Shown here in pieces: positions 11,930 through 21,708 of a stretch of DNA of 64,000 bases. Position 1 is the first letter of the stretch. Every line of letters begins with the position of its first letter. The DNA lies in contig CAWAEF010000031.1 in the NCBI GenBank assembly GCA_963780985.1, forward strand, positions 17,286-81,285, read 5' to 3'. The notes beneath the pieces were generated by a model. The model was given only the letters and a program-made list of their open reading frames with translations. It did no database searches and had not been told where the DNA came from. The translations under genes and the position numbers were made by a program. Origin of the DNA: an uncultured Alphaproteobacteria bacterium. Its GTDB lineage: Bacteria; Pseudomonadota; Alphaproteobacteria; JAGOMX01.

Positions 11930-13474
11930 ATGAGCAAAGAAACTGAAGTAATTAGCAAGCCCGTTGAGGCTCCCGAGTTCGGGAAAATCAGAGCAGCCCT
12001 CTGGCCAATTTATGGTTATGAGATGAAGAAATTCCTGCCCATGGGCCTGATGATGTTCTTCATTCTGTTTGATTACACCATTCTCCGAAGTACCAAAGAC
12101 GCGATTCTCGTCCCCGTTGCGGGATCGGCTATTATTCCTTTCCTTAAAGGACTTATCGTAATGCCGGCGGCCATTCTTTTTGTGGTTTTATACTCGAAAC
12201 TTGTAAATACGTTCAAACCGGCAACGGTCTTTTATATGATCGCGGGCTTCTTTATAAGCTTCTTTGCTTTATACGCCTTCGTTATCTTTCCTAACAACGA
12301 GTTCCTTTTGCCCGATCCTGCGTATATCAAGGCTTTGCAAGCGGAGTATCCAAGGGTTCAACATATTATCGCTATTTATGCCTACTGGACGGATTCGCTG
12401 TTTTATACCTTTGCGGAGCTGTGGGGCAGTATTATGCTTTCCCTGTTGTTCTGGCAGTTCGCCAACGAGATAACCAGAACCCGTGAAGCATCGCGCTTTT
12501 ATGCGTTGTTTGGTCTACTTGGAAACTTGGGCTTGATTCTTTCCGGTTACGTTTTGACGACTGCTTCTTCCATTCAAAAAGCATCGGGCGGCGGACCAGA
12601 GGCTTTTGCTGGCACATTACATTACACAATGGGTGCGGTTATCGTTGCAGGCTTCATTGTTGTCTTCCTGTATAACTGGATGCAGAGAAACGTTCTGACA
12701 GATCCGCTGTATTACGATGCGGCTGAGAAAAGCGGTAAGGTTAAGATTAAGAAGCCAAAGATGTCCGTGGGCGAAAGCTTTAAATACCTATTGAAGTCTA
12801 AGTACATCATGTTCATCGCATTGTTGGTTTTGGCTTACGGTATTGCCATGAACCTGATTGAGTTGAACTGGAAGGAAATTCTGAGGAAGCAATATCCAGA
12901 ACGCATTGATTATCAGCACTTCATGGGTCTGGTTCAGTACGCTATGGGTGGTACGACCATTATTGCGATCTTGTTCTTCAAGGGCGTTGTCCGCAGGTTT
13001 GGTTGGTTCACCGGTGCTATTACGACGCCTCTGATGATGTTAGTGACAGGCGCAATCTTCTTCTCGTTCGTGTTGTTTGAGGACTTCATGTCACCGATCG
13101 CGGCCATGATTGGTGTGACCAGTCTGCTGATGGCGGTAGCCGTGGGAACCATTCAGAACGTGTTGAGTAAGGGTACAAAATACTCACTGTTCGACCCAAC
13201 CAAGGAGATGTCATACATACCCCTTGACCAAGAGCTTAAAACCAAAGGCAAGGCAGCCGTTGACGTTATCGGTGGCCGCTTAGGTAAAGCTGGTGGTGGT
13301 TACATCGTGGGAGCCATGTTTGCAATCACAGGTGCGGCCGACGTGCTGTCGATTACACCGATGATGGCTGTGGCCGTTTGTATCGTCATCCTGATCTGGA
13401 TCTTTGCCGTCTATGGCCTGAATGGTATGTACCAGAAAGCTGTTGCTGAGGCTGAGAAAAAGAAGGCCGAGTAG
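11930..13474 (+). CDS. tlc: ATP/ADP translocase (nucleotide transport protein, Tlc/NTT family)
   Basis: 514 aa, 12-TM type. The N-terminus FGKIRAALWPIYGYEMKKFLPMGLMMFFILFDYTILRSTKDAILV resembles Rickettsia/Chlamydia Tlc. Confidence 0.9.
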   Translation: MSKETEVISKPVEAPEFGKIRAALWPIYGYEMKKFLPMGLMMFFILFDYTILRSTKDAILVPVAGSAIIPFLKGLIVMPAAILFVVLYSKLVNTFKPATVFYMIAGFFISFFALYAFVIFPNNEFLLPDPAYIKALQAEYPRVQHIIAIYAYWTDSLFYTFAELWGSIMLSLLFWQFANEITRTREASRFYALFGLLGNLGLILSGYVLTTASSIQKASGGGPEAFAGTLHYTMGAVIVAGFIVVFLYNWMQRNVLTDPLYYDAAEKSGKVKIKKPKMSVGESFKYLLKSKYIMFIALLVLAYGIAMNLIELNWKEILRKQYPERIDYQHFMGLVQYAMGGTTIIAILFFKGVVRRFGWFTGAITTPLMMLVTGAIFFSFVLFEDFMSPIAAMIGVTSLLMAVAVGTIQNVLSKGTKYSLFDPTKEMSYIPLDQELKTKGKAAVDVIGGRLGKAGGGYIVGAMFAITGAADVLSITPMMAVAVCIVILIWIFAVYGLNGMYQKAVAEAEKKKAE

Positions 13475-13502
13475 TTTATCTTACTGAAATTACTTATAAA
13501 CA

Positions 13503-18041: not shown

Positions 18042-18794
18042 TTAAAGGTTTTCTTGGTGATCAACACGAGTGAATTTTCCCTTGCCATCGAGCGTCTTCA
18101 GGATGTTTCCGGGCTCCATAATCGAAAAAACAATGATGGGAATATGATTGTCTCGCGCTAAAGCGAGAGCAGGCGCATCCATAACTTTCAGATGGTCTTG
18201 CAGGGCCTGGTTATAGCTGACGGTTTCGTAGTGCTTGGCACCCTTATCTTTAAGAGGGTCTGAAGTATAAACGCCATCGACCTTAGTGCCCTTAAGCAGC
18301 ACATCACAACCCATTTCAGACGCGCGCAGAGCCGCCGCCGTATCCGTCGTGAAGTAGGGGCTGCCGCTGCCTCCCGCAAATATCACTATCCGTCCTTTTT
18401 CCAGGTGCCGCATAGCACGCCGACGCATATAAGGTTCACAAATGGTTTGCATAGGAATCGCCGAAAGGACACGGGTGTCTACATCGATTTTTTCAAGAGA
18501 CGATTGCAAGGCAAGAGCATTAATAACGGTTGCTAACATGCCCATGTAATCAGACGTTGAGCGCTCGATACCCTCTTTTTCGCCGACGATACCCCGAAAA
18601 ATATTACCGCCGCCAATAACAACGCATACTTCATATCCCGCATCATGAACCTGCTTAATGTCTTGAGCAATGCGAGAGACCATAGCCGCCGAGAGACCAT
18701 ATTCATGATCACCCATCAACACCTCACCTGACAGTTTGATGAGAGCACGTTTATAGACTTTGTTCACAAGAGCAGGGGCGTTCATATCAGTCAC
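18042..18794 (-). CDS. pyrH: UMP kinase
   Basis: 250 aa with [18 protein letters not shown] and the pyrH-frr synteny. Confidence 0.95.
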
Positions 18795-18820
18795 CAGTTA
18801 TCAGTTGTTCGTCAGTAGTT

Positions 18821-18916
18821 AGAATCCAGAATCTAGAATCTAGAATCCAGAATCCAGAATCCAGAATTCGGAATCTAGAATCCAGAATTCGGAATTCAGA
18901 ATCTAGAAAATCTAGA
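18821..18916. repeat. tandem heptamer array (AGAATCY, about 13 units)
   Basis: agaatcc agaatct agaatct agaatcc agaatcc agaatcc agaattc ggaatct agaatcc agaattc ggaattc agaatct ... read directly. Confidence 0.9.
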
Positions 18917-19061
18917 TTACGTAATTCAAAATCGTAAAACGTCACCAAGGGTAGCAAAAACAGTATGCGCATCTCCAGCCCGTCAATGCGAGTAACCGAC
19001 AATCCCTGTAGGGGGTCGATTTTACACGATGACCGGTCGGTTGTTAGAATGGTGATGGCCG

Positions 19062-19198
19062 CCAGCTGCCTCCCCTGCGAAAGCAGGGGCCCAGCCCTTA
19101 ACATGTGCTGCGTAGCAGCTCTGTATAGAAATACAGAGTCACTGCCGCGACACATTTTGCGCTGGACCCCTGCTTTCGCAGGGGAGGCAAGCTGGGGG
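19062..19198. repeat. 135-bp palindromic element, family A, copy 2 (inverted orientation)
   Basis: ccagctgcctcccctgcgaaagcagggg ... cccctgctttcgcaggggaggcaagctggggg. It is nested inside the pyrH-tsf palindrome. Confidence 0.85.
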
Positions 19199-19375
19199 CA
19201 ATCATCTCCCCTTGAACGCCTTGGCCATCAGAAGGAGCGAGGATCCATAGCAATCTAGTGCAGCACTTGACTATGTGTACCAGTCTGGACTATCGCACTG
19301 GGTTGTCACGGTGCCGCGCGCTGCGCAGCACCTCTCAATGACGGGCTGCTGGAGAGCCAAAATCTGACCCCGGAG

Positions 19376-19420
19376 TCTAGATTCCAGATTCTAGATTCTA
19401 GATTCCGGATTCCGGATTCT
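19376..19420. repeat. tandem heptamer array, reverse complement of the 18821 array (RGATTCT, about 6 units)
   Basis: tctagattcc agattct agattct agattcc ggattcc ggattct read directly. Confidence 0.9.
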
Positions 19421-19433
19421 ACCCCCTCAACCC

Positions 19434-20360
19434 TTACTTATTCAATTGTGCAGCAACTTCCGCTGCAAAATCTGTTTCTTCCTTTTCAATACCTTCGCCC
19501 AAGCCAAAGCGGATAAAGCCTTTGAGCTCAACGGGTGTACCAAGTTCTTTTGCGGCATCTTCAAGGACGTCTTTAACGCGCTTGTCAGGGCCCATAACGA
19601 ATTCTTGCTCGATGAGGACGACTTGCTCATAGTATTTGCGCATGCGGCCATCGATCATCTTGTCTAGGAATTCAGCAGGTTTGCCGGAAGCCTTGGCCAT
19701 ATCTTCATGAACGGCGCGCTCCTTGGCAACCAGCGCCTGATCCAACTCGTGGATGAATGCAGATTGCGGGTTCGTTGCTGCCACGTGCATAGCGATTTGT
19801 CTTGCGACCTCATAAAGGCGCTTGGTATCGCCGGTGGATTCGAGGCCAACCAGCACACCAATTCGGCCAAGGCCTTCGGCTGTTTGGTTGTGCACATAGG
19901 ATGCCACTACGCCTTGCTTTACTTCCATGAGCTCCGCACGGCGGAAAGTCATGTTTTCGCCAATAGTCGCGATCAAGTTTGTGAGCTCAGTCTCAACAGT
20001 GTTGCCGGTGCCGGGATAGCTAGCAGCTTTCAAAGCATCGGGATTAGTTCCCTCGTTTAAAGCAATTTTCGCGAGGGTGGAAACATATGCTTGGAACTGG
20101 TCGTTACGAGCAATGAAGTCTGTTTCTGCATTGACTTCAACGCAGGCACCCTTATTGCCAGCCGTAGCCACGCCAACCAGACCCTCAGCCGCAACGCGGC
20201 TTGCCTTCTTAGATGCAGCAGCCAAACCCTTTTTGCGCAGCCAGTCAGCTGCCGCTTCAATATCACCATTGGTTTCTGCGAGTGCTTTTTTGCAATCCAT
20301 CATGCCCGCGCCCGTACGATCGCGTAGTTCCTTGACCATTGCAGCTGTTACTGTAGACAT
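19434..20360 (-). CDS. tsf: translation elongation factor Ts
   Basis: 308 aa. The N-terminal UBA-like VKELRDRTGAGMMDCKKAL is present, and it follows rpsB. Confidence 0.95.
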   Translation of the reverse strand: MSTVTAAMVKELRDRTGAGMMDCKKALAETNGDIEAAADWLRKKGLAAASKKASRVAAEGLVGVATAGNKGACVEVNAETDFIARNDQFQAYVSTLAKIALNEGTNPDALKAASYPGTGNTVETELTNLIATIGENMTFRRAELMEVKQGVVASYVHNQTAEGLGRIGVLVGLESTGDTKRLYEVARQIAMHVAATNPQSAFIHELDQALVAKERAVHEDMAKASGKPAEFLDKMIDGRMRKYYEQVVLIEQEFVMGPDKRVKDVLEDAAKELGTPVELKGFIRFGLGEGIEKEETDFAAEVAAQLNK

Positions 20361-20478: not shown

Positions 20479-21708
20479 TTACTTCTTTTCCTTAGCTGCA
20501 GGCTTAGCCTTAGCAGCCGCAGGCTTTTCGGCCTTAGTTGCAGCTTCCGCTTTCTTGGCAGGAGCAGCAGCTTTTTCAGCCTTGGGTGCAGCTTCCGCTT
20601 TCTTAGCAGGAGCAGCAGCTTTTTCAGCCTTAGGCGCAGCTTCCGCCTTCTCGGCAGGAGCAGCAGCTTTTTCAGCCTTAGGCGCAGCTTCTGCCTTCTT
20701 CGCGGGAGCAGCAGCCTTTTCAGCCTTAGGAGCAGCTTCTGCCTTCTCGGCAGGAGCAGCGGCTTTTTCAGCCTTAGGTGCGGCTTCTTCCTTCTTTGCA
20801 GGTGCTTTAGCTTCAGTCTTCTCAGCTGCTTTCTTTGCAGGAGCTTCAACCTTAGCTTCAGGCTTCTTAGCAGCTTCAGCCTTCGGAGCCGCCTTCTTAG
20901 CAGGAGCTTCTGCTTCAGCCTTTGGTGCCTTCGCAGGTTTTTCTGCAAATGCCGCAATGACTTCGAGCTCGCTCGCAGGAAGCTCAACGGCTTCGCCTAG
21001 ATCAATACCCGCTGCGACCATCTGGTCAGAAAGACCATCAAGAACTGCACCAGCAAATAGGTCACAGAAGAAACGAATAGAACGCAGTGCGTCATCGTTG
21101 CCAGGAACCGGATAATCGATTTCGGACGGGTCAGAGTTACTGTCGACCACGGCCACGATTGGTAGGCCTAGTTTACGTGCTTCTTTAATGGCTGTGAGCT
21201 CTTTATTGGTGTCAATAATCACCAAGATGCTAGGCACGCCACCCATCTCGCGGATACCGCCGATGGCACGTTCCAACTTTTCGCGCTCGCGCGTCAGTTG
21301 CAGAATCTCTTTCTTCGTCAAACCCTTTTCAGGATTGTTCAATGCTTCTTCATACTCACCCAGTCTCTTAATAGACCGAGAAACAGTCTTCCAGTTGGTC
21401 ATCATGCCGCCCAACCAACGGTGGTTGACGTAGTACTGACCACATCGACTTGCTGCTTCAGCGATGACGGCGGAAGCTTGAGGCTTTGTGCCCACGAATA
21501 GCACGCGGCCACCCTTGGTCACCACATCGTGCACGGCCTTCAATGCTTCTTCGAGCATCGGCACAGTTTTTTCTAGGTTGATAACGTGGACATTGTTACG
21601 AACGCCAAACAAATAGGGCTCCATACGTGGATTCCAACGGCGAGGGTGATGTCCAAAGTGAATGCCAGCTTCAAGCATCTGGCGCATAGTAAATGTAGGT
21701 ATAGCCAT
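20479..21708 (-). CDS. rpsB: 30S ribosomal protein S2 with about 155-aa Ala/Lys/Glu/Pro repeat C-terminal extension
   Basis: The N-terminal 250 aa is canonical S2 ([13 protein letters not shown]...). The tail begins near residue 255 (20482-20946). Confidence 0.93.
20545..20784. repeat. 48-bp in-frame tandem repeat (5 units) inside the rpsB tail
   Basis: It encodes [12 protein letters not shown][EK]KAE x5. The 48-nt DNA periodicity is visible directly. Confidence 0.85.

Follow-up and report, generated by a model that had tools for sequence, protein, structure and literature searches.

A nested insert of facing heptamer arrays and MITE-like palindromes in the tsf-pyrH spacer of an uncultured alphaproteobacterium

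Results

The tsf-pyrH junction

The sequence studied here, hereafter called the window, is a 64,000-nt stretch of contig CAWAEF010000031.1 (positions 17,286 to 81,285) from an uncultured Alphaproteobacteria bacterium (GenBank assembly GCA_963780985.1). It carries a minus-strand operon with the gene order rpsB (20479-21708), tsf, pyrH, frr, uppS and cdsA, in which an unusually long spacer separates tsf from pyrH. An initial annotation described this spacer as one large palindrome, capped by inverted heptamer microsatellites and holding a copy of a dispersed element, family A, at its centre. We found that the spacer is made of three independent layers: a heptamer hairpin and two transposable elements of the miniature inverted-repeat kind (MITEs), which we assign to families A and B. 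The whole is probably a composite of non-coding DNA, specific to its lineage, whose construction took three steps. The positions of its parts are given in Table 1.

The gene upstream of the junction was identified as tsf from the Pfam domain EF_TS recorded on an identical product and from homologues named elongation factor Ts; by its Tsf homologues the organism falls among uncultured Alphaproteobacteria. The length of the spacer depends on the start of pyrH. It is 639 bp (18795-19433) if the GTG at 18794 is used and 648 bp (18786-19433) if translation starts at the ATG at 18785. Of the two, the ATG is the more likely: the JGI annotation of a conspecific contig (L002) begins pyrH there, and the N-termini of PyrH from relatives align with it. 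Two open reading frames (ORFs) of 97 and 122 aa within the spacer traverse the palindromes and arrays and were taken as spurious. A scan of the window against Rfam 15 gave no match in the spacer at the gathering score, the sole hit being a tRNA at 50574-50655. There is therefore no support for a known riboswitch, leader or small RNA in the spacer.

Table 1. Features of the tsf-pyrH junction, and further RGAATCY loci in contigs of the same species
Sequence	Feature	Coordinates	Strand	Description
Window	pyrH (UMP kinase)	18042..18794 (GTG, ORF-finder start) or 18042..18785 (ATG)	(-)	ORF; downstream gene of the junction
Window	Degenerate AACTGAT-type (= TAACTGA) heptamers	18786..18820	(-)	Five units, in phase with the RGAATCY array
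Window	pyrH-proximal heptamer array	18821..18908	(+)	About 12.6 AGAATCY units (13.6 up to 18916); one arm of the outer stem
Window	Decayed heptamer units	18909..18937	(+)	AATCTAG ATTACGT AATTCAA AATCGTA, between array and family B MITE; read from the sequence
Window	Family B MITE, left arm	18938..19014	(.)	Begins TAA-AACGTCACCAAGGGTAGCAAAAACAG, matching the shared A/B terminus; boundaries approximate
Window	Family A MITE	~19015..19234	(.)	At the centre of B; core palindrome 19062-19198; outer termini diverged, boundaries approximate
Window	Family B MITE, central part and right arm	19235..19357	(.)	Decayed; outer terminus missing or unrecognisable; boundaries approximate
Window	tsf-proximal heptamer array	19372..19421	(+)	About 7 RGATTCT units; other arm of the outer stem
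Window	tsf (elongation factor Ts)	19434..20360	(-)	308-aa ORF; upstream gene of the junction
L152	RGAATCY hairpin	2672-2904		About 13 units followed, across a loop of about 20 nt, by about 18 inverted ones
L145	RGAATCY hairpin	8010-8320		About 13 and about 14 units, with about 115 nt between the arms
L146	RGAATCY arrays	2512-2863		Two + arrays, then one - array
L148	RGAATCY array			At the contig end
L145	RGAATCY arrays with family A	4309-5229		Twice in a row an array, 100 nt (the same both times) and family A, then an inverted array

Facing heptamer arrays at the spacer ends

The heptamer arrays proposed to cap the spacer were recovered by several approaches. On the pyrH side, Tandem Repeats Finder (TRF) reported a period of 7 with 12.6 copies (83% matches, consensus AGAATCC, score 113). 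On the tsf side it reported the same period with 5.9 copies at 19379-19419 (91% matches, consensus AGATTCC), and our own scan for units counted 7 of them between 19372 and 19420. The latter array reads TAGAATCC GGAATCC GGAATCT AGAATCT AGAATCT GGAATCT AGACTCC on the operon (minus) strand. The arrays contain inverted arms of 52 nt (18820-18871 and 19370-19421) that are 83% complementary and lie 498 nt apart (BLAST E = 8e-10). A three-unit pattern with up to 3 mismatches matched 18 times in 64 kb, always in one of the two arrays, and never in 100 shuffles. The reported richness in short palindromes is also real: 8 of the 20 TCTAGA sites of the window fall in the spacer (0.12 expected per 639 bp), as do 3 of its 26 GAATTC sites (0.23 expected). 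The outer ends of the arrays are 12 nt from the tsf stop codon and 35 nt from the pyrH ATG. Having at most GG, the unit RGAATCY offers no G-tract of at least 3 per unit, and these arrays belong to the structural class of inverted heptameric repeats, outside its G-quadruplex (G4)-forming subclass.

The decayed units next to the pyrH-proximal array and the segment at ~19358-19371 on the other side look like what is left of the loop or inner stem of the original hairpin. Once A and B are subtracted, 35-43 nt are left between the two arrays, partly in the form of decayed heptamers. This remnant matches the usual gap between facing arrays elsewhere (see below), and the original loop was therefore probably about 35-43 nt long.

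A second kind of heptamer occupies the space between the pyrH-proximal array and pyrH. Its five degenerate units read AACTACT GACGAAC AACTGAT AACTGGT GACTGAT on the minus strand and end 1 nt before the pyrH ATG. In another frame, 18787-18807 reads CAACTGA TAACTGG TGACTGA, followed by T and the ATG, and thus contains at least two consecutive units of the TAACTGA type; TRF reported at 18785-18806 the unit TATCAGT, which is the reverse complement of a rotated TAACTGA. The pattern (TAACTGA)x3 with at most 4 mismatches matched only at this pyrH site in ~400 kb, comprising the window, the conspecific contigs and the loci of two relatives. In relatives P0003 and P0005, whose junctions were read, the ribosome-binding site of pyrH is GGAG, and the TAACTGA-type heptamers stand in its place in the window.

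Two families of palindromes in the interior

Sequences of the same species were fetched with family A as a handle. A degenerate pattern derived from the invariant core of A was scanned over public metagenome contigs and gave 39 stretches. All of these derive from JGI Ga0182030/Ga0182031, and the conspecific tsf contig is among them. The resulting ~300 kb of metagenome contigs form the conspecific sample on which all species-wide numbers rest.

A family A element does lie at the centre of the spacer, as the initial annotation had it. The window contains 6 copies, that is five besides the spacer copy, and the latter aligns with a full-length copy of 208 bp. Its central palindrome has arms of 40 nt (19067-19106 and 19150-19189) that are 85% complementary, and 19049-19234 matches positions 13315-13499 of a conspecific contig (L163) at 82%. 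We aligned 43 alignable copies with their flanks from the window and the conspecific contigs. The density of family A is about one copy per 8-10 kb. Full-length copies of A and of the second family, B, measure 206-208 bp and have the common termini TAA-CCACTCACCAA...TTGGTGAGTGG-TTA (TAACCACTCACCAA termini). They are flanked by (g)TAA...TTA(c), which fits either a TA duplication or a longer inverted repeat.

The segments on either side of family A had been described as mirroring each other, in the manner of a Russian doll. The mirror itself is short, with 15 of 17 bases paired between 18976-18992 and 19332-19348 (right-arm sequence CTCTCAATGACGGGCTG), and alone it is marginal, since 7 of 1000 shuffles reach its score. 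It is nevertheless convincing because both arms match one independent 206-bp palindrome on a conspecific contig (L148 4955-5160; self reverse-complement E = 6e-9), which ends in TAA-ACACTCACCAAAGGTAGC...GCTACTTTTGGTGAGTGG-TTA. The left arm, 18942-18992, matches L148 4959-5010 (85%, E = 1e-9), and the right arm, 19233-19347, gives a reverse-complement match to L148 5109-4995 (73% over 115 nt, E = 2e-13). We therefore interpret the mirror as the inverted arms of a second MITE family, B. Since full-length A ends in the same termini as B, the two are best regarded as members of one MITE-like superfamily. In the spacer, A sits at the centre of B (~18938-19357), between the halves of B's inner palindrome. 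Both families are short (206-208 bp) and non-coding, with terminal inverted repeats; dispersed copies are plentiful for A and few for B (2 clear copies).

Other arrangements of these elements were seen. On L148, the family B copy and a copy of family A lie within 1 kb of sequence (4126-5163), one on each side of a minus-strand ORF of 174 aa (4343-4867). In the window, a 339-bp stretch at 350-688 is bounded by CCACTCACGAA ... TTTGGTGAGTCT, which resemble the A/B termini, and may be a longer or composite member of the superfamily.

One rod from three layers

When folded as operon RNA, the whole spacer gives a single nested rod with a minimum free energy of -317 kcal/mol, compared with -211 +/- 8 kcal/mol for shuffled sequences (z = -13.4). 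The parts are nested, the interior mirror included, and the Russian-doll description holds, but they do not make up one palindrome. An origin from a single ancient inverted duplication was rejected. Direct arm-to-arm alignment outside the arrays and A recovered only a 17-mer, and the global alignment was not significant, 74 of 500 shuffles reaching its score. Nested elements were preferred to a single duplication because of this weak arm-to-arm alignment, and the homology to L148 then confirmed the choice.

Conservation in the species, absence from relatives

The architecture of the junction recurs in four other assemblies from other samples. The organism is present in JGI 3300014838, in ENA ERZ27248494 and in the runs ERR11630400 and SRR6960546. 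Two contigs, from JGI (L002) and ENA (L003), encode Tsf with 99% identity to that of the window, and two partial contigs come from Logan (L001 and L004). The interior measures 444 nt in the window and in the conspecific contigs and is 98.6-98.9% identical between them. The arrays differ in length. The array region on the tsf side is 50 nt long in the window versus 43 nt in L002 and L003, which have one unit fewer, and the region on the pyrH side is 107 nt versus 184 nt, with eleven more units in the two contigs. The JGI and ENA assemblies are independent and mutually identical. Since the length differences, exactly 7 and 77 nt, are multiples of 7 while the interior is constant, unit number appears to change by replication slippage in 7-nt steps, the mechanism initially suggested from the unequal unit numbers of the two arrays.

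The spacer is indeed compact in relatives. It measures 24 nt in P0003 (87% Tsf identity), 4 nt in P0002 (86%), 24 nt in P0004 (83%), 21 nt in P0005 (81%) and 23 nt in P0006 (80%). Because these relatives, at 80-87% Tsf identity, have only 4-24 nt at this point, the insert is lineage-specific. A BLAST search of ~70 kb from these relatives detected no similarity to A, B or the arrays. These relatives lack the entire insert, and we found no genome that separates its layers.

The same point carries other elements in the clade. A further relative, P0007 (81% Tsf identity), has a tsf-pyrH spacer of 368 nt with a different palindromic element (L291 2901-3268). A second contig, whose Tsf is identical to that of P0007, has yet another element there (L292 1225-1292). 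In this clade, small palindromic elements thus seem to have landed repeatedly at the tsf-pyrH junction.

Heptamer hairpins elsewhere in the species

Similar arrays elsewhere in the genome had been proposed as a check of the initial annotation, together with length variation; array length does vary between samples, as described above. Five further RGAATCY loci were found in the ~300 kb of conspecific contigs, bringing the number to six loci in ~365 kb (Table 1). The heptamer hairpin is therefore not peculiar to the tsf-pyrH junction and forms a genome-wide family, which extends across phyla. All long period-7 arrays in this species are built of RGAATCY. In the conspecific contigs they occupy the interval between the stop or start codons of adjacent genes, in convergent as well as co-directional contexts. 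The locus at L145 4309-5229 reproduces the architecture of the window with a segmental tandem duplication; it lies between two convergent ORFs and occupies the gap from stop codon to stop codon. Family A-type MITEs are present in 2 of the 5 complete hairpins of the species, a count biased by the way the loci were found.

Heptamer hairpins and their polarity across phyla

We then scanned one genome per GTDB species for four consecutive RGAATCY units and obtained at least 120 stretches. The matches listed, to which the cross-phylum figures of this section refer, come from Acidobacteriota, Planctomycetota, Patescibacteria, Verrucomicrobiota, Bacteroidota, Gemmatimonadota, Proteobacteria and others. 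The arrays at these loci are typically found as facing pairs, and the gap within a pair has a median of 41 nt (interquartile range 21-97, n = 49). The 450-500 nt between the arms in the window, versus this median, are explained by the insertion of two MITEs. By a rough ORF call, the median distance from array to neighbouring ORF across phyla is 7-17 nt. At the listed loci, 7 is by far the commonest tandem period (398 of 1007 TRF rows). Heptamers of unrelated sequence at these loci also tend to face each other, with 15 inverted pairs, 0 direct pairs and 5 unrelated ones.

The polarity of a facing pair is an intrinsic property, because the pair reads alike on both strands. In the species studied here it is (AGAATCY)n...(RGATTCT)n in 5 cases out of 5. 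Among the matches listed, the opposite polarity was found in 9 out of 9 pairs of an Isosphaeraceae metagenome-assembled genome (MAG) and in 8 out of 8 pairs of an Acidobacteriota MAG, and polarity was also uniform in two further genomes (2/2 each). Over all listed genomes both kinds occur, at 29 versus 20. Uniform polarity is unexpected if arrays arise by independent random slippage, and may reflect a copying mechanism or a structural constraint.

Four consecutive RGAATCY units were also present in 74 viral contigs, mostly of 20-50 kb and mostly from metagenome 3300045988, and scrambled-core controls in 12-19 viral contigs. These RGAATCY contigs suggest a single group of related phages in which a heptamer array is conserved. 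The idea that the GAATC core is uniquely favoured was dropped, three scrambled cores being about as frequent in viral contigs after the collapse of ~55 contigs from one metagenome.

Discussion

A proposed three-step origin

We propose that an RGAATCY facing-array hairpin first arose at, or arrived in, a junction of 4-24 nt, with a loop that was probably of the length estimated above. A palindromic MITE of family B (~206-bp class) would then have inserted into the hairpin loop, and a MITE of family A, which has the same termini and is abundant in the genome, into the centre of B. Each newcomer would have entered at the apex of the preceding palindrome. For this reason the insert still folds as one long rod, in which the two arrays pair with each other, as do the two arms of B and the two arms of A. 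The arrays would keep changing by replication slippage in 7-nt steps, with the interior remaining stable. We infer the order hairpin, then B, then A, and we presume that the insert is essentially selfish or neutral DNA without a selected function. Each of its layers is of a kind already described, of which the spacer holds new members.

As to its consequences, the insert most likely results in a rod-like structure, of RNA or DNA, which is tolerated by the operon. Transcription presumably reads through the insert from tsf to pyrH, and we found no convincing intrinsic terminator on the operon strand inside it. A self-contained rod that allows such read-through would explain why the insert is tolerated. 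Likely side effects would be a stable stem-loop on the 3' side of the tsf mRNA, a possible target for a double-strand RNase, and altered initiation of pyrH translation.

Several points weigh against this scenario. Neutrality is presumed, and the uniform polarity of the hairpins and the way they abut gene ends could reflect a function or a copying mechanism. The arrays could have originated in place or been imported, the flanks being too diverged from those of the relatives for an empty-site junction to be read. The array lengths are those of short-read assemblies, in which part of the repeats could be collapsed. Family B has one other clear copy in ~350 kb, and the B copy of the window has no recognisable right terminus. 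The termini are decayed to the point where target-site duplications of A in B and of B in the loop are unreadable. A search for an autonomous element with A/B termini found none in 353 kb, where the sole pair of such termini 0.5-3.5 kb apart belongs to two adjacent MITEs.

Alternative explanations

Tentatively, the heptamer hairpin itself could be what disperses, in the manner of repetitive extragenic palindromic (REP) sequences, bacterial interspersed mosaic elements (BIMEs) or foldback elements, by means of an enzyme or of template switching. It would then have arrived whole and served later as a landing pad for MITEs, slippage modulating its length. This would account for the single unit shared by all six loci of the species, for the uniform polarity per genome (5/5, 9/9, 8/8, 2/2 and 2/2, among the matches listed), for the absence of the hairpin from the orthologous junction of relatives and for the inverted pairing of unrelated heptamers at the listed loci. 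The family A-type MITEs in 2 of 5 complete hairpins (a biased count) also fit. However, no conserved sequence lies outside or between the arrays across loci, and target-site duplications are not to be seen. Nor did we identify an associated gene, no search having been made for REP-associated tyrosine transposases (RAYTs). Arm lengths are very unequal and variable, as plain slippage predicts, and scrambled-core arrays are about as frequent in viral contigs once the one phage group is collapsed. It is unlikely, though worth stating, that heptamer-array hairpins constitute a distinct class of dispersed intergenic elements across phyla, with a genome-specific unit and polarity, a dedicated copying process (REP/RAYT-like or template-switching) and a role as preferred MITE landing sites. 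If this were true, the tsf-pyrH spacer would be a snapshot of a hairpin element that colonised an essential operon and was in turn colonised.

A regulatory role for the insert in the operon seems similarly improbable. Under selection, the stem formed by the arrays could be where the RNA is processed (by RNase III, for example) or stabilised, which would uncouple the expression of tsf from that of pyrH. Alternatively, TAGAAT motifs in the units could serve as -10 boxes of a separate pyrH promoter, with expression tuned by the number of units. In the transcript, the two arrays are predicted to form a stem of ~45 bp. A sigma-70-like TTGAAT-18 nt-TAGAAT is found at 19445-19416 on the operon strand, facing pyrH, and every CTAGAATC junction contains the -10-like TAGAAT. 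However, such promoter matches rest on consensus only (4 versus 0.9 +/- 1.1 in shuffles). The GGAG of relatives is replaced by heptamers of the TAACTGA type, for which a translational role was proposed in Beggiatoaceae (PMC4679880), and unit number varies between strains. Against regulation, hairpins of this kind are seen in every gene context, including between convergent genes, the two layers of MITEs were clearly added as parasites, and the study of Xanthomonas heptamers saw no regulatory role (PMC4692102).

We consider it very unlikely that the arrays act as protein-binding or methylation arrays. The unit is self-complementary save for its centre, + and - units differing by a central A or T, and as RGAnTCY it contains GANTC, the CcrM/HinfI-type site, so that the arrays could titrate or position a dimeric protein or a methyltransferase. 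CcrM is common in alphaproteobacteria, to which the host belongs, and the 639-bp spacer holds 17 GANTC sites. Nevertheless, elsewhere the window shows no notable avoidance of GANTC (212 observed, 250 expected), and hairpins of unrelated, non-palindromic units are equally common in other genomes among the matches listed; for these two reasons the proposal was downgraded. Degenerate units, moreover, often lose GANTC, and no candidate binding protein was identified.

Finally, an assembly artefact, be it a chimeric join or a repeat that was collapsed or expanded, is hardly credible: such repeats do break short-read assemblies, and two Logan contigs end inside family A, but the artefact is effectively refuted for the architecture, exact unit counts excepted, because the structure recurs in four assemblies from other samples, with the same order of parts and the 444-nt interior in the window, the JGI contig, the ENA contig and partly the two Logan contigs.

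Comparison with known repeats

The three-step origin that we prefer draws on kinds of repeats known from other organisms. A literature search by unit sequence returned nothing beyond the study of Rehm et al. (2015, PLoS One, PMC4692102), which focuses on G-quadruplex formation and reports 186 and 183 GGGAATC-type heptamer repeats in two Xanthomonas genomes. These are 89-93% intergenic, near ORF ends, and form 70 and 75 convergent pairs of arrays on opposite strands in the two genomes; their length varies widely between species, and they are mostly transcribed, without an identified function (PMC4692102). The unit of the spacer is likewise a 7-nt tandem with a GAATC core (GGAATC when R = G). 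It shares with the Xanthomonas repeats the intergenic location near ORF ends, the many loci per genome, the convergent pairs able to form a stem-loop or cruciform, and the strong length variation among close relatives. In contrast to them, RGAATCY lacks the GGG tract, which makes the G-quadruplex rationale inapplicable, the host is an uncultured alphaproteobacterium, and the arms are 450-500 nt apart rather than adjacent. Facing RGAATCY arrays in Acidobacteriota, Planctomycetota, Patescibacteria and other phyla are not reported in PMC4692102. Since RGAATCY shares the GAATC core yet has no G-tract, the hairpin arrangement is independent of G4 potential.

Among the long simple sequence repeats of bacteria, heptamers form the commonest class according to Mrazek et al. 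(2007), as summarised in PMC4679880. Direct TAACTGA repeats just upstream of start codons were described in Beggiatoaceae, cyanobacteria and Bacteroidetes, with a role in translation proposed for those of Beggiatoaceae (MacGregor 2015, PMC4679880). The three to five degenerate units that end 1 nt before the pyrH ATG resemble these TAACTGA repeats, and the STRR heptamers of cyanobacteria are also comparable. They differ from the TAACTGA repeats of PMC4679880 in being a single degenerate site in ~400 kb, versus hundreds per genome, and in adjoining a different heptamer family.

Families A and B, at ~206 bp, non-coding and palindromic, with terminal inverted repeats, multiple copies, restriction to the species and nesting of one in the other, resemble bacterial MITEs. 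Palindromic dispersed repeats of this sort include the Rickettsia palindromic elements, Correia/NEMIS and ERIC. A and B show no sequence relationship to a described family, the Rfam scan giving no match in the spacer, and we found no cognate transposase in 353 kb. REP sequences and BIMEs are imperfect palindromes of 20-40 nt with a conserved 5' tetranucleotide and an association with RAYT transposases; the elements found here, of 206 bp and arrays of 7-nt units, are unlike REP units in size. The insertion sequences IS1397 and ISKpn1 insert in REP loops, and small dispersed repeats reportedly sit inside cyanobacterial heptamer arrays. As in these cases, successive elements at the apex of a palindrome or within heptamers have produced a Russian-doll structure in the spacer; a true preference for apex insertion would be tentative at best, as the sample is 2 of 5 hairpins, a count biased by how they were found. 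Eukaryotic Foldback transposons also have long inverted arms made of tandem arrays of a short unit, with variable arm length and a variable or absent middle. They have target-site duplications and, in some copies, a linked transposase, neither of which is shown here, and the likeness is one of architecture only.

Significance of the insert

Successive nesting of structural and selfish DNA explains the 30-fold expansion of a junction that is otherwise 4-24 nt long. The expansion is not due to a hidden gene or RNA, and annotators can mask the spacer. The 7-nt length polymorphism provides a ready marker for strain typing. Facing heptamer arrays, previously known from Xanthomonas, are no local curiosity and are far more widespread than the located literature reports, with hairpins of GAATC-core or unrelated heptamers in Acidobacteriota, Planctomycetota, Patescibacteria, Bacteroidota and others. 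What remains most interesting is this cross-phylum heptamer-array hairpin with its genome-specific polarity. Should a copying mechanism or a function lie behind the regularity in polarity, a large unexplained share of the intergenic DNA of soil and peat bacteria would be concerned.

Additional observations

The rpsB gene of the same operon contains a 48-nt tandem repeat at 20525-20802 (5.8 copies, 89% matches), which encodes an Ala/Lys/Glu-rich C-terminal extension of ribosomal protein S2. The protein is 409 aa long in the window and 402 or 409 aa in the conspecific contigs. In relatives with an S2 Pfam hit on the gene upstream of tsf it measures 312-357 aa, and one relative has a 394-aa gene in the S2 position, without a Pfam hit. 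The length of the S2 tail thus varies within the clade.

At 11930-13435 the window encodes a homologue of TLC-type ATP/ADP translocases, 80% identical to a copy beside the same operon in a relative. Judged by homology, it hints at an intracellular or energy-parasitic lifestyle, which would be consistent with a genome rich in palindromic repeats. Further tandem repeats are present in the window at 52967-53281 (a 102-nt unit in 3.1 copies) and at 56229-56447 (an array of 24/48/72-nt units).

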